64,000 nucleotides of DNA from an uncultured Gammaproteobacteria bacterium (lineage in GTDB: Bacteria > Patescibacteriota > Microgenomatia > Woykebacterales > RBG-16-39-9b). The stretch spans positions 65,991 to 129,990 of the forward strand of contig CAYGGA010000001.1 of the NCBI GenBank assembly GCA_964349395.1, in the 5' to 3' direction. The translations under genes and the position numbers were made by a program. The notes beneath the pieces were generated by a model. The model ran no database searches and was not told the DNA's origin. It saw only the letters and a list, made by a program, of their open reading frames with translations. Of the stretch, positions 26,974 to 49,850 are shown piece after piece. Within the stretch, counting starts at the first letter, position 1; each line of letters begins with the position of its first letter.

Positions 26974-28572
26974 ATGAAAGCCTTCAGAAGACTTTGGTGG
27001 TATTTCAAAAGTGCCATTTCTCGTTATTACCGGCGCTTTTTGCCGGTTATGCTCATCTTGGCGGGGCTAGTAATGATTTCCCCTTTTGTGAGGAGTACTC
27101 TCAGTCCTCTCTACCATGAATTTATTTCCCCAGTTCAGAAAGCAGTCTTAACTGAAGGTCTAGTCGGGTCAGTGAAGACTTTAAATCCTATCTTAGCCAC
27201 TACTGACAGTGAGCGAGATATTGATCAACTTGTCTTTCGAGGTTTGACCAAAACTGACTCCAGAGGCGATCCGGTGGGGGACCTGGCACGAGATTTCAAC
27301 GTGCAAAATAATAAAGAGTACACCTTTAGACTGCAGGATAATGTTTTTTGGCATGACGGGGAAAAATTCACCGCTGATGATGTGCTCTACACTGTAAAAA
27401 TAGCTCAAAATTCAAGTTTCCATTCACCCTTTTATGAAACCTTAAAAGATGCAGCAGTTACCAAACTCAGCGACTTTGAGGTGAGATTTACTCTAAAAGA
27501 GGAATTTGCCCCCTTTTTATCTTTGACAAATTTTGGCATTATCCCCGAGCACATCCCTCTTAACAAGTATAAACCAGTAGGGACGGGGCGATTTTCGATT
27601 GTGGAATCTAAAGATGATTATGTTTTGCTCAAAGGAGAGAGTTTTAACTTACTTTTTCGTTACTATGCCACTAGAGATTTGGCCTTAACTGCACTAAAAC
27701 TGGGTGAAATCCAATCTTTAGGTGGTCTGTCGTCTTCAGAAGCAGCCGAGGTGAATAACTGGGATAATCTGAAAATCTATAGTCAAAATCTAGCTCAGAG
27801 ATACGTCGGCCTTTTTATCAATGGCAGAAACGATAAACTCCAGGACAAGGCCGTCAGGCAAGCTCTACAAATGTCCACTCCAAAAGCGGATATTATCGCT
27901 TTCACGACTGAGAATAAAGCTCAAGAAGCTACCTCCTCTGTCCCTCTCAACTCTTGGGTACCGATACTTTCTAACACTCGCTATCGCTACAATCCTGAGG
28001 AAGCTAAAAACCTACTCGAGCGGGCGGGGTGGAAAATGGGAGAGGGCTCATATCGCACCAATGAGGGCCGTGAGCTAGCAGTCACAATTACCACTTTGGA
28101 TAACCGGACTTATTTGGAAGCTTTAGAAATGTTAAAAGAAAGTTGGGGCCAGATAGGAATCAGAGTGGAAAAACACACGGTCAGTAGCAACCAACTGCGA
28201 GATACAGTACTACCCAACCATCAATTTGAGATCCTGCTCAACTCCCAAGAAATCCCCGCGGATCCAGATCAGTACAATTTGTGGCACTCTACTCAGATTG
28301 GGGTGAGCAATATTGTGTCTTTAGACTCCCCTAAGATTGATAAAGTTTTGGAAGATGGCCGTCAAAGCCTGGAAAGAGACACCCGCATCAGTCGGTACCA
28401 GGATTTCCAAAGATTTTTGAGTGATGAGGCGCCAGTGATATTCCTTTATTATCCAGATTATTATTATGTGGTTTCAAATCGGGTGACTGGGGTGGATTTG
28501 CAGACATTAGGGCTGCCTAAAGATAGATTTCGCAGCGTAGATAAATGGGTGATTGGCAAAAAGTTTTTCTAG
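26974..28572 (+). CDS. ABC transporter substrate-binding protein, family 5 (oligopeptide/nickel type), membrane anchored
   Basis: 532 aa. N-terminal TM. Family-5 SBP-like sequence throughout. Confidence 0.7.
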   Translation: MKAFRRLWWYFKSAISRYYRRFLPVMLILAGLVMISPFVRSTLSPLYHEFISPVQKAVLTEGLVGSVKTLNPILATTDSERDIDQLVFRGLTKTDSRGDPVGDLARDFNVQNNKEYTFRLQDNVFWHDGEKFTADDVLYTVKIAQNSSFHSPFYETLKDAAVTKLSDFEVRFTLKEEFAPFLSLTNFGIIPEHIPLNKYKPVGTGRFSIVESKDDYVLLKGESFNLLFRYYATRDLALTALKLGEIQSLGGLSSSEAAEVNNWDNLKIYSQNLAQRYVGLFINGRNDKLQDKAVRQALQMSTPKADIIAFTTENKAQEATSSVPLNSWVPILSNTRYRYNPEEAKNLLERAGWKMGEGSYRTNEGRELAVTITTLDNRTYLEALEMLKESWGQIGIRVEKHTVSSNQLRDTVLPNHQFEILLNSQEIPADPDQYNLWHSTQIGVSNIVSLDSPKIDKVLEDGRQSLERDTRISRYQDFQRFLSDEAPVIFLYYPDYYYVVSNRVTGVDLQTLGLPKDRFRSVDKWVIGKKFF

Positions 28573-29501
28573 AAAGTAGTGCTTTGCGCAAACTGCAGCA
28601 AAGCTTCACTGTCACCTTTGCGGTCCTCACTTCCTAAAACGACAATCAAAAATTGGTGGCTCCCCCGTTGTACTAGAGTAACTAGGCACAGTCCAGCTTC
28701 TGGGGTATACCCGGGTTTAATTCCGAGGTAGCCCTCTAGATTTAGAGTCGGGGAATTATTTACCAAGACATAGTCTTTATGATTTTCTTCCTCAGTCACC
28801 GTGAACGGAAAAGTAATTTCTCGGGTGGCGACAATTTTTGCCAAAAGCGGGTAATCTCTGATGAGTTTGACCGAAAAAGCGGCAATATCAAAAGCCGAGC
28901 TGTACTGAAACCCTTCATCAAGGCCATTGGGATTTACAAAATGAGTGTTGTTTAGTCCCAAACTCTCGGCTTTTTTATTCATCTGGGCTACAAATTTGCT
29001 TTCCGATCCAGATGTAGCCTCGGCTAAAGCCACAGCAGCGTCATTGCCGGAGACTAAAATCAACCCATACAAAAGTTGGTTGATAGTAAGTTTTTCTCCT
29101 GGATACAAGCCCATACTGTCTGGGGTCTTGGAGGCAGCATATTTGGTGATTGTAGTGAAAGAATTGGGGTCAAGATGATCTAGAACCACCATACCCGTCA
29201 CTATCTTTTGGACACTGCCCACGGGGGTTCTCAAATCAGGGTTTTTACTCATGAGCAAGGTGTTGGTAGACAGGTCGACCACGTAAGCAGATTTACCAGA
29301 AATAATGGGGTAAGCCTCTTTTGATGGGGTAGCCAGCGTGTGAGGGGTCCAAAAAGGAGTTCTAGCCTGCGCAGCGGCAACATTTCCTTTACTTCCATCA
29401 CTAACAAACTTCGGCAGATCAAATTTAGTGTAAAAAGGAGAGAAGTAGAAAATGATTCCACCAGTTATTAATAAGAAAAAAACTCCAAAAAACTTCTTCA
29501 T
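28569..29501 (-). CDS. D-alanyl-D-alanine carboxypeptidase (S11 peptidase, PBP5-like)
   Basis: 310 aa. SVQK (SxxK), SGN and KPG (KTG-like) motifs. N-terminal TM. Confidence 0.8.
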   Translation of the reverse strand: MKKFFGVFFLLITGGIIFYFSPFYTKFDLPKFVSDGSKGNVAAAQARTPFWTPHTLATPSKEAYPIISGKSAYVVDLSTNTLLMSKNPDLRTPVGSVQKIVTGMVVLDHLDPNSFTTITKYAASKTPDSMGLYPGEKLTINQLLYGLILVSGNDAAVALAEATSGSESKFVAQMNKKAESLGLNNTHFVNPNGLDEGFQYSSAFDIAAFSVKLIRDYPLLAKIVATREITFPFTVTEEENHKDYVLVNNSPTLNLEGYLGIKPGYTPEAGLCLVTLVQRGSHQFLIVVLGSEDRKGDSEALLQFAQSTTF

Positions 29502-29548
29502 AGGACAGTAAACAAGCTTACTAAAAAATGTGAAGATCAGTCAAGGCT

Positions 29549-30058
29549 ATGATATACTACCAGGCAGATTTTTCAGGAGGCAGATCGTTGAAGATCAAGC
29601 TCAGTCGGAGAGACATTGAGGGTGTTATCCCACATCGCCGACACGCCCAATTTCTAGATTGGGCGGTAGTGGACACAGATAGTGGAGAGGTGACGGCTGC
29701 CTTTCGGGCGAGGAAATGGATGTGCGACGGCCACATGGACATCCTTCCTGGACATTTCATGGCGGAAGGGGTAAATCTGGCGATCGCCATAGCCGCAATG
29801 CATGGCAAGCCACCCAAGACCCAGGTCCTTCTGAGAGAAACTGGTAACGGCAAACTTTACCTGAAAGTCCCGCAAGGAGCACTGGTCACCGTGACTGGTC
29901 GAGTCAATAGCTGTGAAGTGGTGCGGAGGATTTTCCTGCGAGTAATCGCTTCGGGTGAGGCTACGGTGGGAGGCAAAAGGGCATTTACTGTACCGGCCGA
30001 AATCAAAGCCGTGATCGAATTGCCGGAAGAATCAGGCGAGAACAAGGCTGAGGAGTAG
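29549..30058 (+). CDS. hotdog-fold (FabZ/FabA-like) dehydratase, GC-enriched
   Basis: 169 aa. IPHRRHAQFLDWAVVD resembles the FabZ LPHRYPFLLVD motif. GC by eye about 55%. Lies on the 3' side of tRNA-Lys. Confidence 0.55.
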   Translation: MIYYQADFSGGRSLKIKLSRRDIEGVIPHRRHAQFLDWAVVDTDSGEVTAAFRARKWMCDGHMDILPGHFMAEGVNLAIAIAAMHGKPPKTQVLLRETGNGKLYLKVPQGALVTVTGRVNSCEVVRRIFLRVIASGEATVGGKRAFTVPAEIKAVIELPEESGENKAEE

Positions 30059-30072
30059 TCTAATCCTACTAG

Positions 30073-30103
30073 GGTGGTTGTGTCTACTGGTACAACCACC
30101 TTT
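30073..30103 (+). terminator. intrinsic terminator after the hotdog-fold gene
   Basis: GGTGGTTGT...ACAACCACC 9-bp stem followed by TTT. Confidence 0.5.
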
Positions 30104-30160
30104 ACTATTTCCGCCCTTCGTATTTAACATAACTTACCTTAGGATTAGCCAAGTGACTTT

Positions 30161-30178
30161 TGGTGAGCCGCAGAGGAA
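30161..30178 (-). repeat. 18-bp direct repeat identical to the 3' end of tRNA-Lys (att-like remnant)
   Basis: tggtgagccgcagaggaa is identical to 30280-30297 (acceptor/T-arm 3' portion plus CCA). It lies 101 bp downstream of the tRNA. Confidence 0.6.
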
Positions 30179-30279
30179 GGGGAAGCTGCGCTTCCTCTCC
30201 AGCTGAGCTGGACCGAACCGGAAGATCCGTCCTCATTGAGACTTACATAAACCAGTTTGGGCGTGGCCCAACTGTTTTA

Positions 30280-30355
30280 TGGTGAGCCGCAGAGGAATCG
30301 AACCTCTAACCGTCTCCTTAAGAGGGAGATGCTCTACCAATTGAGCTAGCGGCCC
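30280..30355 (-). tRNA. tRNA-Lys(CTT)
   Basis: 76-nt cloverleaf. Anticodon stem TCTCC/GGAGA. Loop CTCTTAA. T-loop GGTTCGATTCC. Encoded CCA. Confidence 0.85.
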
Positions 30356-30448
30356 ATAACAACTACATTATACCAATAAAAGAAATTATTAGCACTTTAA
30401 TTAGCTACGGTTCTTTCTTTTTTTATCCCCACCATTTAATATACTTAC

Positions 30449-31414
30449 ATGGTTTCTAGAGAAGAAATTTTAAACTCCCTCCAATATGTGGTTGATAATT
30501 CTAAATTTGTGTCTATCAGCCAAAACGCTATCTTAAAATATGTCCAAAACTTTGTTTTAACTCCTGCTACTCACTGGTCTCACCAAACTCCTTTTAAATA
30601 TCCAGGGCAGAAGACTTTTGAAGAAGAAATTGATTTTCTCTTTTTGATTGGCAACCAAGCTTTTTGCTATTGGGGCAGCCCAAAGTGGACTATTGATTAT
30701 CAAAACCAAAAACTAGATGGCTGGTGGGCAGCAATAGCCAGTTTCCAAAGAGCAATAGAAAGTGGAACATCCATACTAGATGGAAGCTATCTAGCCTCTT
30801 TGTCTGAAGAACAAACTAAGGAACTTTTTGCAGGGACACCAGAAATCCCTCTTTTGATAGAAAGACAAGGTATGCTAAATAAAATTGGTAGAGTTTTGGA
30901 GGCAAAATATGCAGGCAGTTTCCATAACTTTTTTAGCTCAGTAGATAAAACAGCTATTAATCTAGCACAAGCCCTTAGTGATGAGTTTGCTGGGTTTGAT
31001 GATACTGCTAGTTACAAGGGAAAAAGAGTTTATTTTTACAAAAAGGCTCAGTTGGTAGTCAATGACATTTTCTCCAATATTTTAGGTCAAGATAGTAATA
31101 TTACCGGGATTGGTCAACTTCTAGGCACAGCTGATTACAAAATTCCAGCAATACTGAGACAACACTGGATTTTGGAGTACACTACCGACTTGGCAGAAAG
31201 AATTGATAACCAAGTAGAAATCCTTGAGAAGAGTGAGGAGGAAGTGGAAATTAGAGCATCGCAACTAATTGCCGTGAAGCAAATTTCTGACCTCTTAAAA
31301 CCCAAATATCCCCAGCTAACCCCACCTGCAATACAAGATATTCTCTGGCTTTCTACTCAGGGTTTGGGGAGTCTACAAAAACCCTATCATCTGACCAAAA
31401 CAATTTACTACTAG
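30449..31414 (+). CDS. queuosine salvage protein, DUF2419/Qng1-like
   Basis: 321 aa. Family resemblance including the RVYFYKKAQLVVNDI motif. Assignment made from memory of the family. Confidence 0.5.
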   Translation: MVSREEILNSLQYVVDNSKFVSISQNAILKYVQNFVLTPATHWSHQTPFKYPGQKTFEEEIDFLFLIGNQAFCYWGSPKWTIDYQNQKLDGWWAAIASFQRAIESGTSILDGSYLASLSEEQTKELFAGTPEIPLLIERQGMLNKIGRVLEAKYAGSFHNFFSSVDKTAINLAQALSDEFAGFDDTASYKGKRVYFYKKAQLVVNDIFSNILGQDSNITGIGQLLGTADYKIPAILRQHWILEYTTDLAERIDNQVEILEKSEEEVEIRASQLIAVKQISDLLKPKYPQLTPPAIQDILWLSTQGLGSLQKPYHLTKTIYY

Positions 31415-31453
31415 CTTGTTGATTTTAGAATCTATTGGGAGTAAAAAAGACCT

Positions 31454-31726
31454 ATGCAAGAAGAAAATCCCGAAAATATGGATTCTGATAGAGATGGTTT
31501 GAGTGACGCTGATGAAGCCAGGGTGGGTACAGACCCCCTTCACGCGGACACTGATGGGGACCGGATTCCGGACGGGGTAGAAGTTACCAGATACCGTACT
31601 GAGCCGACCAGAGTCGATACTGATGGGGATCGCATTCCTGACGCTCACGAGATCGACACCTATCGCAGCGATCCAAACTCCACTGACACTAACCGAGATG
31701 GAGTCTCAGACAACCAAGAAATCTAA
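31454..31726 (+). CDS. small Ca2+-binding protein with four thrombospondin type-3-like repeats, GC-enriched
   Basis: 90 aa. Repeats DSDRDGLSDADE, DTDGDRIPDGVE, DTDGDRIPDAHE, DTNRDGVSDNQE. No signal peptide. Confidence 0.5.
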   Translation: MQEENPENMDSDRDGLSDADEARVGTDPLHADTDGDRIPDGVEVTRYRTEPTRVDTDGDRIPDAHEIDTYRSDPNSTDTNRDGVSDNQEI

Positions 31727-31773
31727 ACTGCATAACTCTTTCCAAATCACTCAAAAAACCTTATTCTAATAGT

Positions 31774-33024
31774 ATGGATTCAGGAAGTTTTAATGTCTCA
31801 AGTTTAGACACTCAACAAACCACCCCCAAAAGCAGAAGGAAAATTGTTATAACTATTGTAATTTTTATATCCTTGCTGATTGCCGGAGGGATCACTGCAT
31901 TTTTTCTTCTCACTCCAAAAGAAGGCAAAATTGTCTCTCCACTTTCTGTTATCCAAGAAAAACTAGCTCCCAAGAACTGCAACGTGGATCAACCAGACTC
32001 AAATTACCAAAAAGGAACCTCAGCTTACCCTCGTCTGGACTGGGCCAACAACAAAATTGGGGTGTATTCTTTTGCTGACCGCGACTCCCTAGAAAAGGCG
32101 GGGCCCATGGTAAATGGCAATGGGGGAGACTGGGGTTGGGTCTTGATACCTTTTAACATCAAACAAACTTCCGAGCCTTATTGGAACTCTGTTTTTGAGA
32201 TTACCTGCCAGCAACACTTAATACCTATTTTGCAGCTTTTTAATGAGAGCAAACCTCCAACTGAAAGTGAAACTAAAGCGATGGCTGAATTTTTGGCCAA
32301 ACTAAAATGGCCCACCAAACTGAAATTTATCACTGCCTACAATGAGGTGAATGCTTCTGAGTATTGGGGAGGCAAGATTGATCCAGAAGGATATGCGCAG
32401 ACTTTAGATTTGACTATCCGTGAGCTTAAAAACAGGGATAAGGACTTTTTTGTGATGAATGGCGCTTTCAATAGCTCCGCTCGGACCAATCCTGGTTTTA
32501 AAACTGATCTAGGAGTCTTTACTGCTTATTTGGACTTACCAGACTTTTTAGACAGGATGGAAAAGGAAGTTCCGGGTATCTTTAAAAAATTGGATGGCTG
32601 GGCTTCCCACACTTATCCTCACCCCGGGTACAAGGGTAAACCACTGGACACGACTGTCCCTGGGGAAAGTGAGTATGAGAAGGGTAGAAATACCATGCGT
32701 AGCTACCTTTATGACCTAAAGGTAGTCAAAGACAAATTTGGCATCGACTTGCCGGTCTTTATTACCGAAGCTGGTTGGCCTCACCGCGAAGGAACGACTA
32801 CTCACAATGAATGGCTACCTGCTACCACCGTAGCTGAGTACTACAAAACTGTTTTTGAACAGCTCTACCTGACGGACCCGAAAGTTGTAAGCGTCACCCC
32901 ATTTATTATGAAAATGAAAGGGGTAGATAATTTTGCTTTCATTGATAGTAAAGATGCACCTTACCCTCAATACAACATTATTAAAAACCTCCCTAAAACT
33001 GCCGGCCGGCCGGAGCTGGAGTAA
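31774..33024 (+). CDS. membrane-anchored glycoside hydrolase, clan GH-A (GH5-like)
   Basis: 416 aa. N-terminal TM. ITAYNEVN (NEP-like acid/base) and FITEAGWP (nucleophile Glu) motifs. Confidence 0.6.
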   Translation: MDSGSFNVSSLDTQQTTPKSRRKIVITIVIFISLLIAGGITAFFLLTPKEGKIVSPLSVIQEKLAPKNCNVDQPDSNYQKGTSAYPRLDWANNKIGVYSFADRDSLEKAGPMVNGNGGDWGWVLIPFNIKQTSEPYWNSVFEITCQQHLIPILQLFNESKPPTESETKAMAEFLAKLKWPTKLKFITAYNEVNASEYWGGKIDPEGYAQTLDLTIRELKNRDKDFFVMNGAFNSSARTNPGFKTDLGVFTAYLDLPDFLDRMEKEVPGIFKKLDGWASHTYPHPGYKGKPLDTTVPGESEYEKGRNTMRSYLYDLKVVKDKFGIDLPVFITEAGWPHREGTTTHNEWLPATTVAEYYKTVFEQLYLTDPKVVSVTPFIMKMKGVDNFAFIDSKDAPYPQYNIIKNLPKTAGRPELE

Positions 33025-33057
33025 GTTAATAGTTAAAAGTTTAGAATTAAAAGTTAG

Positions 33058-33348
33058 ATGACTTACTACAAAGTTCCGACCAGACAAGAGATTAAAATAG
33101 GTTCTAGAGTTAAAGTTATTGAGAAAGTGAATTATGAAACAGGCGAGGTAACCGAGGGGACAGTGGCACAAATATTAACCTCTAAGCCAAATCATCCACG
33201 CGGAATTAAAGTACGCCTGACAAATGGAATTGTTGGGAGAGTTCAAGCTCTAGGGGGTCAGCCCATTGTGCCAGTGGAAACACAAGAGCCAGAGGTTACG
33301 GATGGACCAAAGGTAGAGTACAATCCTGAGGAAGACGAACTTTTGTAA
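33058..33348 (+). CDS. YwbE-family small protein (DUF2196)
   Basis: 96 aa. TGEVTEGTVAQILTSKPNHPRGIKVRLTNGIVGRVQ matches the YwbE signature. Confidence 0.6.
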   Translation: MTYYKVPTRQEIKIGSRVKVIEKVNYETGEVTEGTVAQILTSKPNHPRGIKVRLTNGIVGRVQALGGQPIVPVETQEPEVTDGPKVEYNPEEDELL

Positions 33349-33396
33349 CATCAAACATCAAAAAGTAAATATTTCATTTTTTCTTTTTTACTATTG

Positions 33397-34464
33397 TCAC
33401 TTCTTTGGCCCCAAGGACCGTTTAACTTCATCAAGAAGTTGTTTCTTAGGGATAGTGGCTACCCCAATCGTCATATCCGCCGCTCCATAGTATATATAGT
33501 ATTCCTCCTCGATCTCCACAGCTCCACAAGTAAAGACAACATTGGGTACAAAACCAAACTTCTCAAAGCTCTCCTGAGGGTCTAGGATGGGTTCTGGGGA
33601 ACGATAAATCACGTCAGTTGGATTATCATGGTCTAGGACCAATAAACCCAAACGGTAGGTGTTGAAAGAGTCGACCCCATGGTAGAAAATCAACCAACCC
33701 ACTTCTGAGTCAATGGGTGGGGACCCAAGACCTACTCTGACACTGTCCCAGTAGCCGCTTCTTTCTCTAAAGACAATATGAGGTTCACTGAGCTCTACTA
33801 AATTTATCGAGTGGGAGAAAAAGGTCTCATTTTGGAAAGTACGGTAAAGAAGCCAGTACTCACCTTTTACCAACATTGGGAAAAGTGAGGCATTTTTAGC
33901 ATTTAAATTGGGGACAATCACATCTTGGTCTTCAAAAGTTTTGAAATCCCGAGTTGTAGCTAGAGCAACTCTGATTCTTTTGGCTACTTTTTCTGGCCAG
34001 TTAGGATTTACCACTCCTTCCGGGTCGATCGAAACGGCGGTGTAGACCACATAAAATAAACCATCAATCTTGACGATGCGCGGATCTTCTACCCCTAGGC
34101 TCTCAAATTCATGCCTCTTATTACCTTCATAGACTGGGTAATCCTGCCTATCAAAGTGAAGACCATCAGTTGAGGATGCATAACCAAATCTGGAGATCCC
34201 ATCTTCCCCCATCGCGCGGAAAAGCATATGGACGACTCCTTGGTCATAAATAACCGCGGGGTTGAAGACCAACCAGTTTTCCCAGGACAGGGAAGTTGGA
34301 GTTAATATTGGGTTGGCGTGGTAGCGTTGTAATTTCACAAAGACAGTTTTGTACCCCTCTAGTGTAAAACAGATTGTGTTGGTATGTAAATTGTTGTTAA
34401 ATATATTCATGCAGAATACGCAGAGAAGAAGACAATTTATCAAATCCATCGAGGCTAAATCCAT
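33397..34464 (-). CDS. GH130-family glycoside phosphorylase/hydrolase (DUF377 fold)
   Basis: 355 aa. RYHANPIL start region. DPRIVKIDGLFYVVYTA. The true start is probably the internal Met (about 34410). Confidence 0.7.
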   Translation of the reverse strand: MDLASMDLINCLLLCVFCMNIFNNNLHTNTICFTLEGYKTVFVKLQRYHANPILTPTSLSWENWLVFNPAVIYDQGVVHMLFRAMGEDGISRFGYASSTDGLHFDRQDYPVYEGNKRHEFESLGVEDPRIVKIDGLFYVVYTAVSIDPEGVVNPNWPEKVAKRIRVALATTRDFKTFEDQDVIVPNLNAKNASLFPMLVKGEYWLLYRTFQNETFFSHSINLVELSEPHIVFRERSGYWDSVRVGLGSPPIDSEVGWLIFYHGVDSFNTYRLGLLVLDHDNPTDVIYRSPEPILDPQESFEKFGFVPNVVFTCGAVEIEEEYYIYYGAADMTIGVATIPKKQLLDEVKRSLGPKK

Positions 34465-35008
34465 TGCTGCCAGGCCAGCTCTGACTCACTTGGCTGATGA
34501 GCTGACTACTTTGTGTGGTTCACCAGTTTTCTTGTTATTAAATGTAATTTTGTTTGCTAGTTGGATTTTAGTAAACTCGGGGATTTTACCCTTGGTGCCA
34601 GTTTTTGACCCTTTTCCCTTTGGGTTACTGACCATGTTGGTGTCCTTGGAGGCAATTATGCTTGCGATTTTAGTCCTGATTTCCCAAAACCGGTCAGCAT
34701 ACATAAATACCATCCGAGATGAAGTCAATCTCCAAATAAACCTTAAATCAGAAGAAGAAATTACTAAAATCTTGGAAGTATTGAAAGAACTTAGGGAAAA
34801 GCAGGGGATTACTACTCCTGATCCAGAGCTAGATCAAATGATTAAAAGAACTGATGCGGGGTATATCGAACAAGCGATCATCAATCAGCTAGTCAAGGCC
34901 AATGGGCCAGTTGTACACCAACTAATCAAGGAATTTCCAGATATTGTGGCTAAATTTGACCCACTAAAACTAGCTGACCTCCTCAAAATTCCCAAAGAAG
35001 ATAAGTAA
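34409..35008 (+). CDS. DUF1003 membrane protein
   Basis: Track ORF 34349..35008. The likely start is the internal ATG at 34409. Two TM segments plus a coiled-coil C-terminus typical of DUF1003. Confidence 0.55.
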   Translation: MQNTQRRRQFIKSIEAKSIAARPALTHLADELTTLCGSPVFLLLNVILFASWILVNSGILPLVPVFDPFPFGLLTMLVSLEAIMLAILVLISQNRSAYINTIRDEVNLQINLKSEEEITKILEVLKELREKQGITTPDPELDQMIKRTDAGYIEQAIINQLVKANGPVVHQLIKEFPDIVAKFDPLKLADLLKIPKEDK

Positions 35009-35129
35009 CTTAGCTTTATTTTCAACTCGAGAAAACCATAGGTTCAAATTCACAACAAAATAGGACCTATAGCATTGACTTTTAATGATAATTGTGCTAA
35101 TATGTTTTTAATCCAATTGGAGGAAGGTT

Positions 35130-35441
35130 ATGAGTTTGGATCACACCCTCGGTATCGTCAGGCGGTATGAACCTGCGTCCGAGGAGCATCGGTACGCAGT
35201 CATCAGCCGCAACCTCTCTGCCGAGACATACGAGGAGAGCGACCATGTCGTCTTTTCCTCGGGTGATCTGGAGGAGGTAGTCGTTCGTTTCATCCAGGAA
35301 GAATCCTGCCACATGTTCGAAGGTCTGTGGTCGGAAGGCTTCCCTGGAACTGAGACAGCGACGCTCCGTGAACTGCACGTCCTTCGCCTTCGCGAGCTTG
35401 CGGTGTACCACGGATTGGATCCTGAACTGGTCACCTCCTAA
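35130..35441 (+). CDS. hypothetical acidic protein, GC-rich
   Basis: 103 aa. Strong RBS GGAGGAAGG. GC by eye about 58%. Confidence 0.5.
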   Translation: MSLDHTLGIVRRYEPASEEHRYAVISRNLSAETYEESDHVVFSSGDLEEVVVRFIQEESCHMFEGLWSEGFPGTETATLRELHVLRLRELAVYHGLDPELVTS

Positions 35442-35545
35442 CGGGAACAACCAGTCTCAAACTCACCCCTGAGAATAGCAATTCTTGGGGGTGTTTCATT
35501 TTAAAAGCATTAATGTAGTTTTTTATGGTAAAATATGCCTATTGT

Positions 35546-35621
35546 GCGCCCATAGCTCAGTGGATAGAGCAGGACGGTTCTAACGTCAAGGTCGGGGGTT
35601 CGAATCCCTCTGGGCGTACCA
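35546..35621 (+). tRNA. tRNA-Arg(TCT)
   Basis: 76 nt. Acceptor GCGCCCA/TGGGCGT. Anticodon loop GTTCTAA. T-loop GGTTCGAATCC. CCA encoded. Confidence 0.85.
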
Positions 35622-35876
35622 ATAATTTAGGCGGAGAGTTGCTTTTTGCGCGAACAAGTAATATAATGTTTACAGGCTTTTTAGTATTGCCTTTTAGAAT
35701 GGAATATTTTGAAAAGCATTTTTTTTTGCTTACTTATTTGGGGACCACAGTAAGATCGACTCAAGATGAGACGGTTTTACTGTGTTTCCTTTTGAGGGAA
35801 GACAAAATCAAGGAAGGGGCAGTCTAAGGGAAACTATCCTTAACGACTAGAGTTCAGAGAAAGAGAGATCCTCAAC

Positions 35877-36368
35877 TTGTTCAAGAAAGTTATCATCTTG
35901 GGCGCGGTTGCGCTGGTTGCCATGCTCGGCATCGTCGCGACAGTCTCGGCCGCCGGCGGGTTTGACGAGTTCGGCTACAACGACACGGCCCGCATCTTCG
36001 TGGGACCCGCAGACGGCGTCGACGGCGTCATGGACGGAATGGTCTGGGGCGACGCTACCTACGCAAACGACCACCTCGTCATGAAGTGGAACGCGGCCTG
36101 GGATGCCTGCAACGATCTGAACACTCCGGAGGCCTGCGCTGGTGCCTGGATTGACAACGAATGGAACGGAAAAGTTCCCGACGGTAGCGGCGAGACCTGG
36201 CATTACAAGATCGTCTGGATCGGAGCCTGCGGAGCTTACGGAACCCCGACTGGTGACGGTGGCTACTGCATCTGGAATAGCTACGAGATGCTGATGTCCC
36301 AAGGAACTGCGGAGAACGTGCACATCTGGGACGCACACGCTATCCCGAACGGCTACGGCGGTCGATAG
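35877..36368 (+). CDS. secreted Trp/Cys/Gly-rich protein of unknown function, very GC-rich
   Basis: 163 aa. TTG start. Signal peptide MFKKVIILGAVALVAMLGIVATVSAAGG. GC by eye about 60%. An overlapping antisense ORF 35847..36338 is judged spurious. Confidence 0.5.
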   Translation: MFKKVIILGAVALVAMLGIVATVSAAGGFDEFGYNDTARIFVGPADGVDGVMDGMVWGDATYANDHLVMKWNAAWDACNDLNTPEACAGAWIDNEWNGKVPDGSGETWHYKIVWIGACGAYGTPTGDGGYCIWNSYEMLMSQGTAENVHIWDAHAIPNGYGGR

Positions 36369-36465
36369 CGCTTTTCCGGTGCAGGTCTTCTTCAGATAGC
36401 ACCGAGCCCTCTCAGGAAAAACAGTTACATAACCTAACTGGCGCTGTCTGTAATTCCGGAGAGTA

Positions 36466-36545
36466 GATCAACTGTGCTGTGTATTATTAAGTCCTCTTTG
36501 ACCCTAACCGGTACATTGAGAACCTAATATACACAGCACTTTTTT
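36466..36545 (+). terminator. long hairpin (11-bp stem GTGCTGTGTAT/ATACACAGCAC) followed by a T-run
   Basis: Perfect inverted repeat with a 44-nt loop, followed by TTTTTT. Confidence 0.35.
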
Positions 36546-36959
36546 AATATATTTTTCAATAATTTCTCCATCCAAACTACCTTGGGAAACTACTATTTGT
36601 CTTTGCATTAGGAAGTTAAACATCTGCTTTTCCCTTCCTAAAACGGTGTTTTGCTTGGAGCTTTCCTGTATAATAGGTGGTATCGAGCGCTTGGAGTTTC
36701 TTGTAGGTTAGGAGTAAACTATCGAAAATGGTGTTCCACCCAGAGACATCCAGGCGTACCAGTTTAAGCTTAGAACTTTAGTTCTAGGTTTAAACTGGGT
36801 CCAGAGTGTGGTGAACCCCCTCGGGTTCGAGTTGGCGAAGCAAACCAAGAGCTTTAGCTCCGGCATCCCTCTGGGCAACCATCCCACAGTAAAACCCATA
36901 GCCTTGACATCAAACTTTAATTATGATATCCTTCATCTACAAAAATTTGGAGAATTGAG

Positions 36960-37334
36960 ATGTGCGAGATTTACCACGGCGCGGTCTGGGAGATTGACGA
37001 GCCAATGAAGAGGGGCTACATCCTGGGTGACGACGGGCAAATGCACGCCTTTTCTCTGGTTGGCTACCGGAGCCTGAGGATCACCAAGAAGGATGGGTTG
37101 CGGTTTGTGGACAAGCCACCTATGAACACGCCGAAATACAAGCTTTGGGTGCACATGAACTTGAAGACTGGAGATCGGGTGGTCTACCAGAAGGCAAGGA
37201 TTCCTGGGCTCAACCACCACATGCCCGACTCTTACAACGCTTTTCCCTGGGTTTTGGAGTCTGTTTACAGCACACACGTTAGGCACGCGGCCAAACGGGG
37301 GATCGCCAACCAATTGCAACCTGTTCCGGTTTGA
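36960..37334 (+). CDS. hypothetical protein, GC-enriched
   Basis: 124 aa. No recognisable motif. GC by eye about 55%. Confidence 0.45.
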   Translation: MCEIYHGAVWEIDEPMKRGYILGDDGQMHAFSLVGYRSLRITKKDGLRFVDKPPMNTPKYKLWVHMNLKTGDRVVYQKARIPGLNHHMPDSYNAFPWVLESVYSTHVRHAAKRGIANQLQPVPV

Positions 37335-37377
37335 CCTACGACCGAACGCCTTTGAGTACACCACTCGGAGGCGGTTT

Positions 37378-39771
37378 TTATGCAGAAATAATTGGCTCTA
37401 CTATAGATTCCGTGGAATCAGTGAAAGTAGTCCCCTTGGCACTAATCAGAGGTTTGATGAGAGCTACCTTTAGAACTTCATCAATGTGTTCGACAAAGTA
37501 AAATTTCAGGTCTTTTAGAGTCTTCTGCGGGATTTCCTCAAGATCTTTTTCATTTCCTTTTGGCAAGATCAGTGTAGTTAGCCCCGCTCGGTGAGCTGCC
37601 AAAACTTTTTCTTTCACCCCACCAATATCTAAGACTTTACCTCTCAGAGTGATCTCACCGGTCATGGCTACTTCTTTCCGCACGGGGATTCGAGAAATCA
37701 TGGAAATGATGCTAGTGGCCATAGTGATACCAGCACTAGGCCCATCCTTTGGAATCGCCCCGGAGGGGACATGAATATGCACATCTTTATTTTTGTAGAA
37801 ATTTTCTGGGATCCCAATCTCACTCGCTTTGCTTCGTGCGTAGGAAAAAGCCGCAGTCGCACTTTCTTTCATAACATCCCCTAAAGATCCAGTCAAAATC
37901 AAAGTTCCTTTCCCAGGCATACTGGTTGATTCCACCCCCAGGACTTCCCCACCAGCCTCTGTCCAGGCTAGACCAGTAGCTACGCCAACTTCATCCTTTT
38001 TCTCTGCCAGCCACGGGCGGAATTTTTCTGGACCTAAATAAGTTTTCAAATCTTTTTCCGTAAGGGATGCTTTTTTGATGTTTTCTTCAGCCACCAGGCG
38101 GGCAATTTTTCTCGAAATAGTGGCAATTTCTCTTTCTAGATTTCTGACCCCGGCTTCACGAGTGTACTTGGTAATGACTGTAGAAAGGGCTTTATTCTCA
38201 ATCGTGAGCTGATCTTTCTTGAGCCCATGGTTTTCAATCTGCTTTGGCAAAAGATAATCAGTGGCGATATGAAATTTCTCTTCCTCGGTGTACCCAGGAA
38301 ATTCAATGATTTCCATACGGTCTCGCAGAGCCGGCGGGATAGTATCCAAATTGTTGGCGGTGGTGATAAACATCACGTCACTTAAGTCAAAAGGAACTTC
38401 TAGATAATGATCCGAGAACGCAAAATTTTGCTCTGGATCCAAAGCTTCTAGCAGGGCGGAAGAAGGGTCCCCTCTAAAGTCGTAACCTAATTTATCAATT
38501 TCGTCCAAAATAAAGACCGGGTTTTTGGTACCTGCATCTTTTACTCCTTGGATGATCCTTCCGGGCAAGGCTCCGACGTAGGTGCGGCGGTGCCCCCTGA
38601 TCTCAGCTTCATCTCGTATGCCACCCAAGGAAACTTTTACAAACTCCCGGTTTAAAGCCTTAGCAATCGATCTAGCAATCGAAGTCTTACCCACCCCTGG
38701 AGGACCAAAAAAGAGAATAATTGGGCCCTTCATTTTACCAGTGAGTTTTTTGACCGCTAAGTATTCTAAAATTCTTTCCTTAACTTTTTTCAAGCCGTAA
38801 TGGTCTTGGTTTAAAACCTTTTCCGCCTGCTTGACATCAATTTTTTCTTCACTTTTCTTTTTCCAAGGCAAAGCAACCAGCGTATCTAAATAAGTGCGGA
38901 TATAGGAGACCTCAGGGCTCATCGATGGCATTTTTTTGAGTCGATCTAACTCCTTAAGAGCCTTGGTCTGGATCTCTTCTGGCATCCCCGCAGTACGGAT
39001 CCCTTTTTCTAATTCCTGGAATTCTTCCTGTTCTTCTTTGATTCCCAATTCTTTTTCAATTGTTTTGAGTTCTTCCCGCAGAAAAGCTTCTTTGGCGCTT
39101 TTGCCGAGCTCTTCGGCGGTCTTATCTTGGATTTTGCGCGCGGTTTGGAAAACACTGAGTTCACGAGAGAGATAACTAGTTACCATATCCAGTCTTTTCT
39201 TAAAACTATCTGCTTCCAGAAGATCCTGCTTTTCTTGCGATTTCAAATCTAAATTGACGACCAATGTGTCTAGTACTCGCAGCGGATTAGAGAAGTCAAA
39301 AACAGCCGAAATTGTGTCTAGAGCCACTGATTTACCCATGGATATAAGTTGTCTAAATTGCTCAACGGCCGCGCGAAGAGTCTCTTCAATCTCTGGATCA
39401 GAGACATAAGTTTCGGGGAGTTCTTCGAGATTTACTTCAAAATAAACTTGGTTTTTGGCGAAAGATTTGATTTTGGCTCTAGTTTCGCCTTCAACCATGA
39501 TATTGATGACGCCATCTGGAAGTCTTTGGACTTGGTTGATCTTGGCAATCGTGCCGACACTATAGAGATCTTCTTCTTTTGGATCATCTTGGTCCTTGTC
39601 TTTTTGCATTACCAAAAAGATCTTTTTACTAGACAGCAGAGAAGCTTCTAAAGCCTTCACACTTTTGTCCCTTTTTAAAGAGATTGGTACTAAAGCATAG
39701 GGAAAAATTACAACATCGCGGACTGGAATTAGGGGAAGTGAAACCACATTCATAGAGTCAGACTTTAGCAT
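37378..39771 (-). CDS. lon: ATP-dependent Lon protease
   Basis: 797 aa. Walker [10 protein letters not shown]. Catalytic PKDGPSAG motif. N-terminal LON domain. Confidence 0.95.
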
Positions 39772-46099: not shown

Positions 46100-46218
46100 T
46101 TTCTCCCTCCAAGTGTAGACATTTTACTAAACTATTTCCCCAAAGTCAATACTATGGGTCCATGAGATGGTTGGGTAGACAAAGTCCGAACCTTCTACCA
46201 AAGTTTATAGGCCCTAAA

Positions 46219-46776
46219 TTATGGTTTTATAAAAGTTGATGCTGAGACTACTAAAAAGATGCCAATGGCATTTAAAATAAAGGAAACAAGCAGGAATTTA
46301 TAAGTCTTCATTTGGGAAATACCCATCAAACTCACCCCAACTTCATCAGGAAATGGTGAAGCAATGATAATCGCACCGATAACTGGTAGTGTCCAACTAA
46401 AATATCTGGAATGCAAGGCCTTAGTTAAGTGGTTGCCACCTAACCTTTCATAAATGGGTGTTATCTCCTCCAAAAGATTGTCTTTCAGGAACTTAAAAAT
46501 TATTAGGTCACCTATAACAGCACCCAAACCTGCAACAATACCAAGTTCTATGGCTGACAATCTTTCAGCTAGAATTAGTAATATTATTGCCCCTGTGGTT
46601 ACAGTAAATGTAGAGACAAACAACATACCGGCAAGAAATGCGCCCAGATAACCTAAATCTCCCAGGTTTAAAAGAAACGAGTGGAATGTTTCATAACCAG
46701 ACAACACTAGAGCTGCCATAATACCAACTGTAAGAAAGAGGAGATTTTTATATTTCCAAATTCGCCAGTATTTCAT
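46219..46776 (-). CDS. YqaA/DedA-like integral membrane protein
   Basis: 185 aa, about 5 TM. Gly-rich TM cores. Confidence 0.5.
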   Translation of the reverse strand: MKYWRIWKYKNLLFLTVGIMAALVLSGYETFHSFLLNLGDLGYLGAFLAGMLFVSTFTVTTGAIILLILAERLSAIELGIVAGLGAVIGDLIIFKFLKDNLLEEITPIYERLGGNHLTKALHSRYFSWTLPVIGAIIIASPFPDEVGVSLMGISQMKTYKFLLVSFILNAIGIFLVVSASTFIKP

Positions 46777-46863
46777 ACAATCATCATACCAGAGGTTCAG
46801 TTAACTTATTAGGGGAATTAAAAATTGAGGCTAAACTAATATAATGGTATAATTAAAAGGATT

Positions 46864-46940
46864 GCGCCCATAGCTCAGCGGATTAGAGTACTTGGCTTCG
46901 AACCAAGGGGTCGGGGGTTCGAATCCCTCTGGGCGCGCCA
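46864..46940 (+). tRNA. tRNA-Arg(TCG)
   Basis: 77 nt. Acceptor GCGCCCA/TGGGCGC. Anticodon stem CTTGG/CCAAG. Loop CTTCGAA. T-loop GGTTCGAATCC. Confidence 0.85.
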
Positions 46941-46991
46941 ATATCAACCCTGAAGCTGGCCTTCTGGGCCTAAGGATAGACTTTTACACTT

Positions 46992-47068
46992 GGTGGCTGT
47001 AGCTCAATTGGCAGAGCAGCAGATTGTGGATCTGCTGGTTGTGGGTTCAAGTCCCATCAGCCACCCCA
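46992..47068 (+). tRNA. tRNA-His(GTG) with G-1
   Basis: Extra 5' G pairs with discriminator C. Anticodon stem GCAGA/TCTGC. Loop TTGTGGA. Confidence 0.85.
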
Positions 47069-47126
47069 AGAACCTATAGTATTGACTTTTTCCCAACTTT
47101 AATTTATACTTCATTCAATCTGCACA

Positions 47127-47549
47127 TTGGAGAAACAAATGCTGTATTCCTCTTCTGAGGTTTGGGAAGATGTCCCTGGTGAATGGAGTAAGTTAATCAA
47201 GAGCAGGAAGTACCGCTTTTGGTCTGATTTAACCAATTGTGGGTATTTTGTTAGCCGAGAGACCGTGCGGCATCCATGGCACCAGTTTGCTGCTGAAGCC
47301 TATGGTGAAGAGGTTGTTCGCTTTGGCGATGGGCTTCTTCAAGTAAATGGAGTTGAGGATATTGCCGTCGACCCCAACTTACTGGAAGTTCATCACGGAG
47401 AAGCTATCGACTGGGATGTCTTTGAAGATAAGCTTCTAGAATTGTTAGCAAGTGTCTATGGCCTTGCTAATCCAAAGATCATTCGCCACGAGGAGCAATG
47501 GCAAAGAGTCAAGCCCTATATTCCTTGGGCCCGCGACACCGACCTCTAA
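47127..47549 (+). CDS. hypothetical protein
   Basis: 140 aa. No recognisable motif. Followed by repeat copy 1. Confidence 0.45.
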   Translation: MEKQMLYSSSEVWEDVPGEWSKLIKSRKYRFWSDLTNCGYFVSRETVRHPWHQFAAEAYGEEVVRFGDGLLQVNGVEDIAVDPNLLEVHHGEAIDWDVFEDKLLELLASVYGLANPKIIRHEEQWQRVKPYIPWARDTDL

Positions 47550-47608
47550 AATCGGGCCGTTAACGCAGAAATGTACGACGGCCTTAATTATTTTCGCTAA
47601 CATAAAAA

Positions 47609-47692
47609 ATTCGAACTCTGTCTACCCAGCCACCCCACGGTTTTTAGGCACAAATTTACATACCCCTGATAAGACAATTGAACCTTTTAGGT
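47609..47692. repeat. ~85-bp intergenic repeat with terminal inverted repeats, copy 1
   Basis: TTCGAACtcTGTCTACCCAGCCACCCCACGGTTTTTAGGCACAAATTTACATACCCCTGATAAGACAATTGAACCTTTTAGG. Near-identical to copy 4. Confidence 0.8.
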
Positions 47693-47773
47693 ATAAAGAA
47701 ACCCCAGACAGTGCATTGCTGCAAAGCTGGGGTATAGTCTCGAAGTTGGCTAAAATGGGTGGCTATTCGGGGG

Positions 47774-48199
47774 TTATCCTTCTTGTGCCCTTTCTTGTGC
47801 CACCTCAAAGTTTATATTTGGGGTGAGTTTACCTGACCGCAGCTTGAGATACATCTCCCGGATGCTTACCATGCTTTGTCCACGAATCCGCAAGACGTAG
47901 TGGTCACCCTGTTCATCAAGATCACCTTCGGTGTCCCCAACTCTGTAGATCCCACAAATTCGTTTGGGTCGGAGGGGGAACCACTCGTAGAAAGAGATTT
48001 CATCAAGGTAATCCTTGATAATCTCGGGAACTGGCTCGGTCAGCTCATGAAGATAAACGTGCCATCTGCCTTTATCCCTAAAGAGAGTGAGCTCAGGAAG
48101 GGAGTACACTGTCCATTCCTGACCCCTATCTTTCATGACTCGTTCTTTGTATCCCGAGATACTCTCCACGCCTTCTTTGAGATAAACAGTTATCGACAC
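47774..48199 (-). CDS. hypothetical protein (cassette gene)
   Basis: 141 aa. Flanked by repeat copies 1 and 2. Confidence 0.45.
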   Translation of the reverse strand: MSITVYLKEGVESISGYKERVMKDRGQEWTVYSLPELTLFRDKGRWHVYLHELTEPVPEIIKDYLDEISFYEWFPLRPKRICGIYRVGDTEGDLDEQGDHYVLRIRGQSMVSIREMYLKLRSGKLTPNINFEVAQERAQEG

Positions 48200-48274
48200 T
48201 CTACTTCTCCTGTTTTTGGTAGAAACATTTTACCACATAGAACGAGCGAAGTCAATTGTTATAGGATATAGAAA

Positions 48275-48356
48275 GTTCGTACTTTGTCTACCCAGCCACC
48301 CCAAGCTTTTTAGGCACAAATTTAGATACCCCTGATAAGACAATTGAACCTTTAGC
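48275..48356. repeat. ~85-bp repeat, copy 2
   Basis: GTTCGtACTTTGTCTACCCAGCCACCCCAaGcTTTTTAGGCACAAATTTAgATACCCCTGATAAGACAATTGAACCTTTAG. About 93% identical to copies 1 and 4. Confidence 0.8.
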
Positions 48357-48399
48357 CAAAGAAAAACCACTGTAACACTATTGATACAGTGGTTTGCTC

Positions 48400-48732
48400 T
48401 CAATCCTCCATCATCCCAAAGACCCGCAGTAGAATCCCCTCCTCGCCTTGGTGTCTGCCCAAAAGTTTCATTGGGGCCTTTCCAGGGTGCTTCCAGGCGA
48501 GCGGGTCGAGGTGTTTACCATCCCCAACGGCAATAACTTGAGCATCGTCTACTACAAGCTCTCTGGCCCGCCTTTCATCTTCGGCAGCAACCAGATAGGT
48601 CAGGACGCCTTCCGCTGGGAAGTCATCAGGATCATAGTTCAGGTCTTCCTATTCCTTTCCAAAGAGTGCATTTACACCGCCAATAATGGCTGCGTAGTCA
48701 CCCGCGGCAGTCAGGCAATAAACTTTCACCAC
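48400..48732 (-). pseudogene. DUF2007-like small protein gene interrupted by an in-frame TAG
   Basis: Manual translation: GTG start, 27 codons, TAG at 48649-48651, then 84 more codons in the same frame (..LVAAEDERRARELV..). Not in the M-start ORF track. Confidence 0.35.
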
Positions 48733-48837
48733 ACCCTACCTCATTGTTTTTTCTTGCTGTATTATACTATTTAATGGGTAACTTACAAGGAAATATGGGA
48801 GTAACTGCTCTACATTTGGCTTAGAGCCTGGATTATT

Positions 48838-48915
48838 GGTTCGAAGTCAGCCTTCTTAAGGACCCCAGCCTTTTTAGGCACGAATTTTAATATCACTGAT
48901 GAGAGGATTGAACCT
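48838..48915. repeat. ~85-bp repeat, copy 3 (diverged)
   Basis: GGTTCGAAgtcag...CTTTTTAGGCACgAATTTtaATAtCaCTGATgAGAggATTGAACCT. Shares end motifs and the TTTTTAGGCAC core. Confidence 0.6.
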
Positions 48916-49690
48916 ATTTTTGTGCCACGATAACTAATCGATGTCTTTTTAACTCTATTCCTTTGTCCGATTCATGTTCCTGCGAGTATCTTTCTAACAA
49001 ATCTTTATCCTTTCCGGTGTCGTAATCTTCAAAAATGGGCACACCTTGTAAAAAGGCATCCAGGTCTTTCTGTGCTAGGTAGTACTCTGAATAGTAAAAA
49101 TCTTTAATCAAAATGATCTTGAAACCAATCTTTTCTAATTCGTATTTGTCTTTTTCAAGTCGAGACTTGTTCCAATTTCCGTAGTCCTGGCCACGCTCAA
49201 AATTCTTCTTTAGCTCAACAGCATCTTTTTCCCCAATCCCAATTTCTAAATAGTAGCCATCAGTGTTCAACAAACGGAAGTATTCTTGGTAAAAACTTGG
49301 CCCACGGCGGTTAAAGATAATATCAAAGCTAGAGTCTTCAAACGGGGTTTTCTCGGCATCACCCAATATAAAAGAAACACTAGTGATATTAAGTTCCTTA
49401 AGCTTTTGATTAGCGACCTTCAAAAGTTCGGCTGAGGAATCAAGTCCGACGATCTTATTAAAATGGTCAGCAACGGAAAAAGCAAACTTACCATCTCCGC
49501 AACCAACGTCAAGAGCAACCCTTTTATCACTGCTCAGCTCCAAGAGCCTAGACTTAAAAATTTCTTCGGGAACACCGTTTTGGTAAACTGAAGAGTATTT
49601 TGGGTCATTAGTTCCATAGGCGTAACCACCAAACTTCTTGGCTACTTTATCATAAAATTCTTTCCCACCAGTTGAGCTGCTCATGAACAA
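48914..49690 (-). CDS. class I SAM-dependent methyltransferase
   Basis: 258 aa. Motif I LDVGCGDGKF. Acidic motif II. Confidence 0.75.
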   Translation of the reverse strand: MFMSSSTGGKEFYDKVAKKFGGYAYGTNDPKYSSVYQNGVPEEIFKSRLLELSSDKRVALDVGCGDGKFAFSVADHFNKIVGLDSSAELLKVANQKLKELNITSVSFILGDAEKTPFEDSSFDIIFNRRGPSFYQEYFRLLNTDGYYLEIGIGEKDAVELKKNFERGQDYGNWNKSRLEKDKYELEKIGFKIILIKDFYYSEYYLAQKDLDAFLQGVPIFEDYDTGKDKDLLERYSQEHESDKGIELKRHRLVIVAQK

Positions 49691-49713
49691 AGTATATCAG
49701 AGAGTAAGGAAAT

Positions 49714-49799
49714 AGGTTCGAACTTTGTCTACCCAGCCACCCCACGGTTTTTAGGCACAAATTTACATACCCCTGATAAGACAATTGAACCTTTTAGGC
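49714..49799. repeat. ~85-bp repeat, copy 4
   Basis: AGGTTCGAACTTTGTCTACCCAGCCACCCCACGGTTTTTAGGCACAAATTTACATACCCCTGATAAGACAATTGAACCTTTTAGGC. Confidence 0.8.
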
Positions 49800-49850
49800 A
49801 TAAAAGAACCCCAACTCTGTTTTGTAAAGTTGGGGTTAACTAACAAAAAG

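Follow-up and report, generated by a model that had tools for sequence, protein, structure and literature searches.

A short repeat of the 3' end of a tRNA-Lys(CTT) gene was analyzed in a 64-kb stretch of a small genome of the candidate phyla radiation (CPR); this whole stretch of 64,000 nucleotides is called the window hereafter. We read the repeat as the relic of a mobile element which integrated site-specifically into the part of the tRNA gene running from the T loop to the 3' end and was later almost wholly deleted, and we give this reading a probability of about 0.6. A neighbouring gene for a FabZ-like protein of the hotdog fold was considered together with it. The repeat is made up as follows (att stands for attachment site):

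30280-30355, minus strand: intact tRNA-Lys(CTT) with CCA encoded (ARAGORN; Rfam tRNA, 69.3 bits)
30280-30297, minus strand: attL-type copy, the 3'-terminal 18 nt inside tRNA-Lys (exact 18-mer)
30161-30178, minus strand: attR-type copy, a displaced tRNA-Lys 3'-end fragment corresponding to tRNA positions 59-76 (18/18 identical)

An earlier sequence-only reading had placed an exact repeat of the 18-nt tRNA-Lys(CTT) end 101 bp downstream of the gene, and this was confirmed by ARAGORN, Rfam and an exact 18-mer search. The plus-strand text of the tRNA-Lys 3' end, TGGTGAGCCGCAGAGGAA, is present exactly twice in the window (30161-30178 and 30280-30297), with 0 repeats expected from 100 dinucleotide-preserving shuffles; it is not a frequent word of the window. 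No third copy was found, towards 28.5 kb or elsewhere in the window, when up to 3 mismatches were allowed, and with up to 4 errors the search returned just other tRNAs and scattered weak matches of chance level. A scan of a metagenome collection for the 18-mer without the preceding T loop gave 25 occurrences, all unrelated chance matches and mostly on contigs of much higher GC, and IMG/VR viral contigs gave no match to the 18-mer. The repeat structure is identical in four independent metagenome contigs (L001, L003, L004 and L005; 99-100% identity) and is therefore not an assembly artefact. With none expected in the shuffles and four independent assemblies in agreement, a chance repeat or a misassembly is extremely improbable.

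The repeat and its geometry are direct observations. The displaced fragment has the same orientation as tRNA-Lys and lies on the 3' side of the gene, beyond a gap of 101 bp (30179-30279). On the plus strand the order is: DacC (minus), the hotdog gene (plus), a terminator hairpin (30071-30102), 58 nt, the displaced fragment, 101 bp, tRNA-Lys (minus), a promoter and Q_salvage (plus). As read from the sequence, the identity block starts at T-loop position 59 and runs to the CCA, the displaced fragment ending in ...CACCA. Divergence on the inner side is immediate: TTCCTCT is preceded by ...GGTTCGA in the tRNA and by ...GCTTCCCC in the copy. On the outer side the repeat can be followed by BLAST over 30 nt in all, with 4 mismatches (30149-30178 versus 30268-30297), 8 of the 12 nt beyond the tRNA 3' end being identical between the two copies. 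A simple tandem duplication was rejected because the sequences which follow the two 18-mers on the inner side are unrelated and the outer 12 nt match at only 8 positions.

Origin of the tRNA-Lys repeat

Islands in tRNA genes are recognized by an intact gene accompanied by a displaced terminal fragment, a 3' fragment being found downstream in the same orientation (PMC4383910, PMC7192596). The standard model takes the DNA attached to this fragment to be the stretch that originally lay downstream of the tRNA (PMC7192596, PMC4383910), and the crossover subsites are the anticodon loop, the T loop and the T/acceptor junction (PMC4383910). The tRNA-Lys locus shares with such Islander-type islands an intact tRNA and a fragment of that same gene on the same replicon (18/18), a terminal 3' fragment which is downstream and in the same orientation, and an identity block extending from a known subsite, the T loop, up to the 3' end. 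It differs from them by the absence of integrase and cargo and by its 101 bp, compared to the 2-200 kb for which islands in tRNA genes are called (PMC4383910): it is a scar rather than an element. The lack of an integrase and the length of only 101 bp therefore designate a relic. The footprint of integration into a tRNA 3' end that had been proposed from the letters of the sequence agrees with this geometry (terminal 3' piece, downstream, same orientation, from the T loop to the CCA), and the accompanying idea of a collapsed island is a fair description of an intervening segment of 101 bp without a gene. A scar of this sort is an ordinary kind of relic and belongs to a textbook phenomenon.

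Integration followed by deletion, the origin that we infer for the repeat, would have proceeded in the following way. Besides a copy of tRNA positions 59-76, the attachment site of the mobile element would have contained a few bases in partial agreement with the sequence past the gene end. A crossover in the T loop would have linked the 5' part of the chromosomal tRNA gene to the copy brought by the element, giving the present intact gene (30280-30355), and the original tRNA 3' end, with its own downstream flank, would have moved to the far side of the element, where it would now be the fragment 30161-30178. The displaced flank would extend leftwards up to the terminator of the hotdog gene. 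Nearly the whole element, including its integrase, would have been deleted afterwards, and the 101 bp left would be former att-arm DNA. The junction predicted for the empty site is ...GCCAAGTGACTTT + TGGTGAGCCGCAGAGGAA + TCGAACCTCT..., and the one predicted for the circle is ...CCCAACTGTTTTA + TGGTGAGCCGCAGAGGAA + GGGGAAGCTGCG....

The 101-bp spacer and the features found in it are:

30179-30279, no strand: spacer, 54% GC, without an open reading frame (ORF) of note
30257-30271: hairpin, terminator-like on both strands, adjoining the tRNA-Lys end
30181-30195: palindrome GGAAGC-TGC-GCTTCC
30198-30212: palindrome TCCAGC-TGA-GCTGGA
30172-30179 and 30191-30198: 8-bp inverted repeat AGAGGAAG/CTTCCTCT, which uses the T-stem strand of the displaced fragment
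30214-30219, minus strand: T-loop-like GGTTCG, 35 nt upstream of the displaced fragment

The terminator-like hairpin and the short palindromes would be explained by an att-arm origin; together with the inverted repeat, they are features to be expected in such DNA. No second copy of the spacer was found in the window or in any fetched locus.

As regards the recombinase that would have acted at tRNA-Lys, the start in the T loop would fit the classical subsite of tyrosine integrases, yet the only tRNA-associated integrases seen in this lineage are large serine recombinases. No tyrosine integrase was seen among the annotated ORFs of the window. In a sister species (contig L006, positions 1-1828), the ORF of a large serine recombinase with Recombinase and Zn-ribbon domains reads into the 3' end of tRNA-Lys; the contig stops before the N terminus, full-length homologs are about 510 aa long, and one of them is on a Gottesmanbacteria genome. 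The use of tRNA-Lys and of other tRNAs as integrase-adjacent sites in relatives is directly established by this locus and by homologous ones, listed here with the one in the window:

L015 10001-11542: recombinase whose 3' end overlaps a convergent tRNA-Lys(CTT)
L016 3177-4735: recombinase whose 3' end overlaps a convergent tRNA-Glu(CTC)
L017 10001-11539: recombinase whose 3' end overlaps a convergent tRNA-Ala(GGC)
Window 59173-59904: truncated recombinase homolog, Zn ribbon and coiled coil only, which runs into the tRNA-Pro 3' end

Recombinase genes thus run into tRNA 3' ends at 5/5 loci examined. Together with the end fragments at other tRNAs of the window and the extra DNA at its tRNA flanks, both described below, these loci support the reading as an integration scar. 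L006 and the four homologous loci share with large serine recombinase (S-Int) elements the position of the recombinase at the island edge, its 3' end at the att site, and the family of domains (Resolvase, Recombinase and Zn ribbon). Here the att sites are tRNA 3' ends, which is rare for serine integrases: 14 cases of 297, stated as previously unreported and unproven (PMC7192596). The tRNA-Lys of the window differs from these elements by the absence of a recombinase gene, whereas the same tRNA has one in L006 and L015.

Several results weigh against an integration scar. The sequence-only reading had proposed to look for an empty tRNA-Lys site in related genomes; neither such a site nor a full element between both repeats was found in any relative, those retrieved for this site being contigs of the same species and one short, differently arranged contig of the sister species. 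The absence of an integrase is a direct observation, the 101-bp interval being without any gene, and tblastn with 24 recombinase homologs near tRNA-Lys revealed no remnant (the sole weak match, of 19 aa, falls inside the tRNA gene). The length of the spacer is far under the 2-kb minimum used for islands (PMC4383910). Its sequence matches neither the element end of L006, nor the recombinase homologs, nor the other loci. In the intact recombinase islands L015-L017, no displaced piece of a tRNA of at least 12 nt was seen within 10 kb; this recombinase family is therefore not obviously the maker of 18-nt repeats. Finally, the tRNA-Lys of L006 is identical but points the other way with respect to the hotdog gene, which implies that the tRNA unit was inverted in one of the lineages. 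There the order (L006 803-950 versus window 30058-30355) is hotdog gene (plus), terminator, promoter, tRNA (plus) and recombinase (minus), so that the tRNA has the hotdog gene on its 5' side and the integrase on its 3' side. A simple integration model leaves this inversion unexplained; an inversion of the whole unit formed by promoter, tRNA, element and fragment would relate the two layouts.

Some variation was also seen around the site. L002 ends at window position 30151, 10 nt before the displaced fragment. L004 (829-901) diverges from the window exactly at the tRNA-Lys 5' end, and L003 (963-1061) diverges inside the anticodon stem, with compensatory changes. This divergence on the 5' side may be strain variation at tRNA-Lys or may come from chimeric joins through the conserved tRNA, and it was not used as evidence. 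In L043, whose Q_salvage gene is 83% identical, an IS200-like transposase is present and no tRNA-Lys lies upstream of Q_salvage.

Fragments and repeats at other tRNA genes

Partial tRNA copies and repeats were also found at the tRNA-Pro, tRNA-Arg(TCT) and tRNA-His genes of the window. They are distributed as follows:

59883-59957, minus strand: tRNA-Pro
36865-36881: degenerate tRNA-Arg(TCT) 3' copy, ATCCCTCTGGGC-AACCA, 1.2 kb downstream of the gene
35130-35441: GC-rich small ORF beside tRNA-Arg, no Pfam match, GC at third codon positions (GC3) 0.65
35877-36368: GC-rich small ORF beside tRNA-Arg, no Pfam match, GC 0.60, GC3 0.77
36960-37334: GC-rich small ORF beside tRNA-Arg, no Pfam match, GC3 0.72
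47596-47706, 48262-48372, 48826-48936, 49703-49813 and 50326-50367: tRNA-His direct repeats
46161-46199 and 46789-46835: inverted half copies of the tRNA-His unit, flanking one ORF upstream of the tRNA pair

The first 19 nt of tRNA-Pro and the 4 bases upstream of it (ATAT) are repeated exactly at 60090-60112 (23 nt), 151 nt further upstream; this is the rarer configuration, with a 5' fragment. The 128-nt spacer upstream of tRNA-Pro holds a 13/14 match to tRNA-Pro positions 20-33 (p ~0.05). In the degenerate tRNA-Arg copy identity starts at T-loop position 59 and GGGTTCGA is found 34 nt upstream, a layout shared with tRNA-Lys. The stretch from tRNA-Arg to Lon is probably a decayed island. Another GGCGTACCA is present near 36753, in the tRNA-Arg region (35100-37377).

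In the tRNA-His region (46161-50367), downstream of the tRNA, five direct repeats each begin with GGTTCGAACTTTGTCTACCCAGCCACCCCA, a motif resembling a tRNA 3' half whose last 11 nt equal the tRNA-His 3' end; in 4 of the 5 the conservation carries on for about 70 nt. Between the repeats lie single small ORFs, including one for a methyltransferase. The region resembles a tandem array of cassettes or islands that lacks an integrase. As in integron cassette arrays, single ORFs lie between imperfectly palindromic repeats of about 100 nt; the tRNA-His repeats differ from integron sites in their mimicry of a tRNA 3' half and in having a tRNA gene as their anchor, and their end motifs are GTT...AAC versus RYYYAAC...GTTRRRY in integrons, with no integron integrase seen. 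The repeat unit belongs to no Rfam family and viral contigs gave nothing relevant. Where contigs of other samples cover the array, they are collinear with it, and no cassette mobility was seen.

A T-loop-like GGTTCG lies 34-35 nt upstream of both the Lys and the Arg fragments. The simple integration model leaves this recurrence unexplained, and it keeps alive two other explanations of the tRNA-Lys repeat, neither of which passes a statistical or structural test. According to the first, which appears rather unlikely, the spacer and the fragment would be a decayed second tRNA-Lys, a tandem duplicate or a captured copy, with about 35 nt inserted in its T loop, and its last 18 nt would have been kept identical by gene conversion or recency. 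A weak colinear alignment of the spacer to tRNA positions 1-57, which starts 10 nt after the tRNA (GGGCCAC... GGTTCG), argues for such a decay, together with the GGTTCG found 35 nt upstream of the Lys fragment, the matching layout of the tRNA-Arg copy (GGGTTCGA + 34 nt + ATCCCTCTGGGC) and the partial match in the tRNA-Pro spacer mentioned above. However, the local alignment of the spacer is not significant (p = 0.08) and is no better than those obtained with tRNA-His or tRNA-Arg. ARAGORN made no call, even with relaxed thresholds and the insertion removed, and there is no Rfam match at E up to 10. Moreover, an identity of 18/18 beside one of about 60% is unlike uniform decay.

In the second explanation the 101 bp and the fragment would form a working site, either an attP-like or "empty cassette" site of small integrase-less cassettes, or a structured RNA co-transcribed with the tRNA. 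The predicted fold of the segment is better than that of shuffled sequences (z = -2.85; 2 of 200 shuffles fold as well) and contains three adjacent 6-bp hairpins, the 8-bp inverted repeat includes the displaced fragment, and the tRNA-His array offers a parallel in its repeats of about 100 nt, with a start resembling a tRNA 3' half, between single ORFs. On the other hand, the Lys spacer has no sequence similarity to the tRNA-His repeat unit, to the tRNA-Pro spacer or to anything else, no copy of it was found across species, no Rfam family corresponds to it, and contigs of other samples, over the part of the tRNA-His array that they span, gave no sign of cassette mobility. We regard a working site as quite unlikely.

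The Lys, Pro and Arg end fragments and the five-repeat tRNA-His array might also be the products of one system of small, mostly integrase-less cassettes, whose sites would mimic tRNA 3' halves (with a GGTTCG start) and which would be inserted in trans by the large serine recombinases that abut tRNAs. This unifying conception is doubtful, to about the same degree as the working site; if it were true, the 101-bp unit of tRNA-Lys would be an empty or minimal cassette site and not debris.

The hotdog gene beside DacC

The features of the region on the far side of the displaced fragment are:

28569-29501, minus strand: DacC, D-Ala-D-Ala carboxypeptidase (Peptidase_S11), a core gene
29588-30058, plus strand: divergent FabZ/FabA-like hotdog gene, 156 aa, probable start TTG at 29588 after a strong AGGAGG
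30071-30102, plus strand: terminator-like hairpin 3' of the hotdog gene

The mechanical ORF of the hotdog gene starts at ATG 29549. Conservation with the sister species does not extend to its first 13 codons, and in both orthologs (window and L006) a TTG is preceded by GGAGG/AGGAGG, so that the true start is probably the TTG at 29588. A similar hairpin, GGTGGTTGT...ACAACCACC, follows the ortholog in L006. The coding status of the gene is directly established: the differences from the L006 ortholog (protein identity 72%) fall 31/19/90 on codon positions 1/2/3, and it is therefore a real gene.

The family of the protein is established too, by remote methods only. It matches neither Pfam nor NCBIfam, the FabA-like domain PF07977 being absent even at E up to 10, and just two close homologs were found for it among 5.8 billion proteins. 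Seven remote relatives (E 7e-8 to 6e-5) came from a profile search against 1.84 billion representatives. The Pfam FabA-like domain was detected in 5 of the 6 that were scanned (P0003-P0007), above the Pfam cut-off in P0003, P0006 and P0007. A profile built on the query and these remote relatives matches FabZ crystal structures with E = 3e-21. G48, H49 and E60 (156-aa numbering) do not vary in the alignment and fall on the GHFPG...PG..xxE stretch of FabZ chains; the GH-motif His and the central-helix Glu are catalytic in FabZ. The AlphaFold2 model, of low confidence (predicted local distance difference test, pLDDT, 55), has a central helix wrapped by a sheet, in the hotdog topology, and the top 19 Foldseek matches to it in the PDB are FabZ (E from 9e-6, TM 0.5-0.65). 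These profile and model comparisons identify the ORF as a conserved, very divergent FabZ-like dehydratase, and the FabZ-like assignment made from the letters alone is in that way borne out. The protein shares with the FabZ/FabA family (PF07977) the fold, the His of the GH motif and the central-helix Glu; it differs from it in lying below Pfam detection when taken alone, in having only two close homologs and in its CPR host. No fatty-acid-synthesis gene was found among the annotated ORFs of the window, of which a subset was scanned. To our knowledge the host lineage is usually described as lacking fatty-acid synthesis. A FabA/ApeI-like hotdog gene is also present in L044 (3799-4266), 1.7 kb from a Q_salvage gene which is 57% identical; it is a more distant relative, with weak similarity to the hotdog protein of the window (25% identity, pairwise E 0.03).

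Composition was compared over the 37 ORFs of the window of at least 150 aa (mean GC 43.0 +/- 3.5%, GC3 41.9 +/- 5.7%). The hotdog gene is distinguishable from them: its GC of 53.3% (ORF 29549-30058; 54.1% from 29588) ranks first of the 37, and its GC3 is 56.5%. The enrichment announced by the sequence-only reading is real, but its figures of about 55% GC versus about 40% in the flanks were slightly generous, the GC of the flanks being 44% towards DacC and 38% towards Q_salvage; the window as a whole has 43.2%. GC is raised in other patches of the window too: it reaches 49% in LexA and a response regulator, and the small ORFs beside tRNA-Arg(TCT), at 54-60% GC and 65-77% GC3, are richer than the hotdog gene. 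A NUDIX gene directly downstream of tRNA-Leu(TAA) (57772-58356) has 52.5% GC and a GC3 of 0.61.

The same reading had seen in the hotdog gene the cargo of the island, or else a neighbouring insertion. As cargo, the gene would belong to an island bounded by the two 18-mers or to a single island at tRNA-Lys. Its GC, the highest of the long ORFs, the scarcity of its close homologs and the absence of the gene between tRNA-Lys and DacC in Woykebacteria are consistent with this. The arrangement contradicts it. The gene lies outside the interval bounded by the repeats (attL-attR), beyond the displaced fragment and on the chromosomal side of the attR-like site, and is therefore not the cargo of the repeat event. 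In the sister species too its neighbour is DacC, the DNA between the two genes is homologous, and the gene has diverged to a degree comparable to DacC: amino-acid identity between the window and L006 is 74% for the hotdog protein and 69% for DacC, and third-position differences are 60% and 49%, respectively. The gene was therefore present before the species split. The L006 layout described above, with gene and integrase on opposite sides of the tRNA, does not favour cargo either. On the standard model the hotdog gene is thus chromosomal flank of the repeat event, and that it was cargo is very unlikely.

A neighbouring insertion fares better: the gene may be an older insertion into the interval between tRNA-Lys and DacC, made before the split of the sister species. 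This is plausible from its high GC and from its absence in the Woykebacteria contig L009, where tRNA-Lys(CTT) is 55 nt from DacC with no hotdog gene between; but a search of the interval from DacC to the hotdog gene, both in the window and in L006, revealed no older tRNA-Lys att fragment, the best matches not being significant (p 0.1-0.9).

Extra DNA at the flanks of tRNA genes

Genes of the window near tRNA-Lys encode a family-5 solute-binding protein (SBP5), the Peptidase_S11 carboxypeptidase DacC and a queuosine salvage protein (Q_salvage). Among species-representative genomes, the closest relatives of DacC (47-52% identity) are in metagenome-assembled genomes of Candidatus Woykebacteria and Woesebacteria, which places the window in a CPR bacterium of the Microgenomates group. 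In the Woykebacteria L009 (5198-10376), a compact block has the order Lon, tRNA-Arg(TCT), tRNA-Lys(CTT), 55 nt, DacC and SBP5. The window keeps this order over 26974-39771, but its three tRNA flanks are longer by about 0.8, 5.2 and 1.75 kb and its tRNA-Arg has the opposite orientation. About 7.7 kb of extra DNA has thus accumulated at tRNA flanks around this old Lon-tRNA-Arg-tRNA-Lys-DacC block.

The hotdog gene, as a rare and isolated FabZ-like enzyme in such a lineage, is a modest lead for lipid biology. The family of recombinases that abut tRNA genes is of some interest in itself, targets of this class being described for serine integrases as rare and unproven (PMC7192596). The tRNA-Lys scar matters little on its own. 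Its value is that of a marker of tRNA genes as active points of integration and rearrangement in a small CPR genome, and it points to the tRNA-targeted serine recombinases and to the arrays of tRNA-end repeats that are found there.

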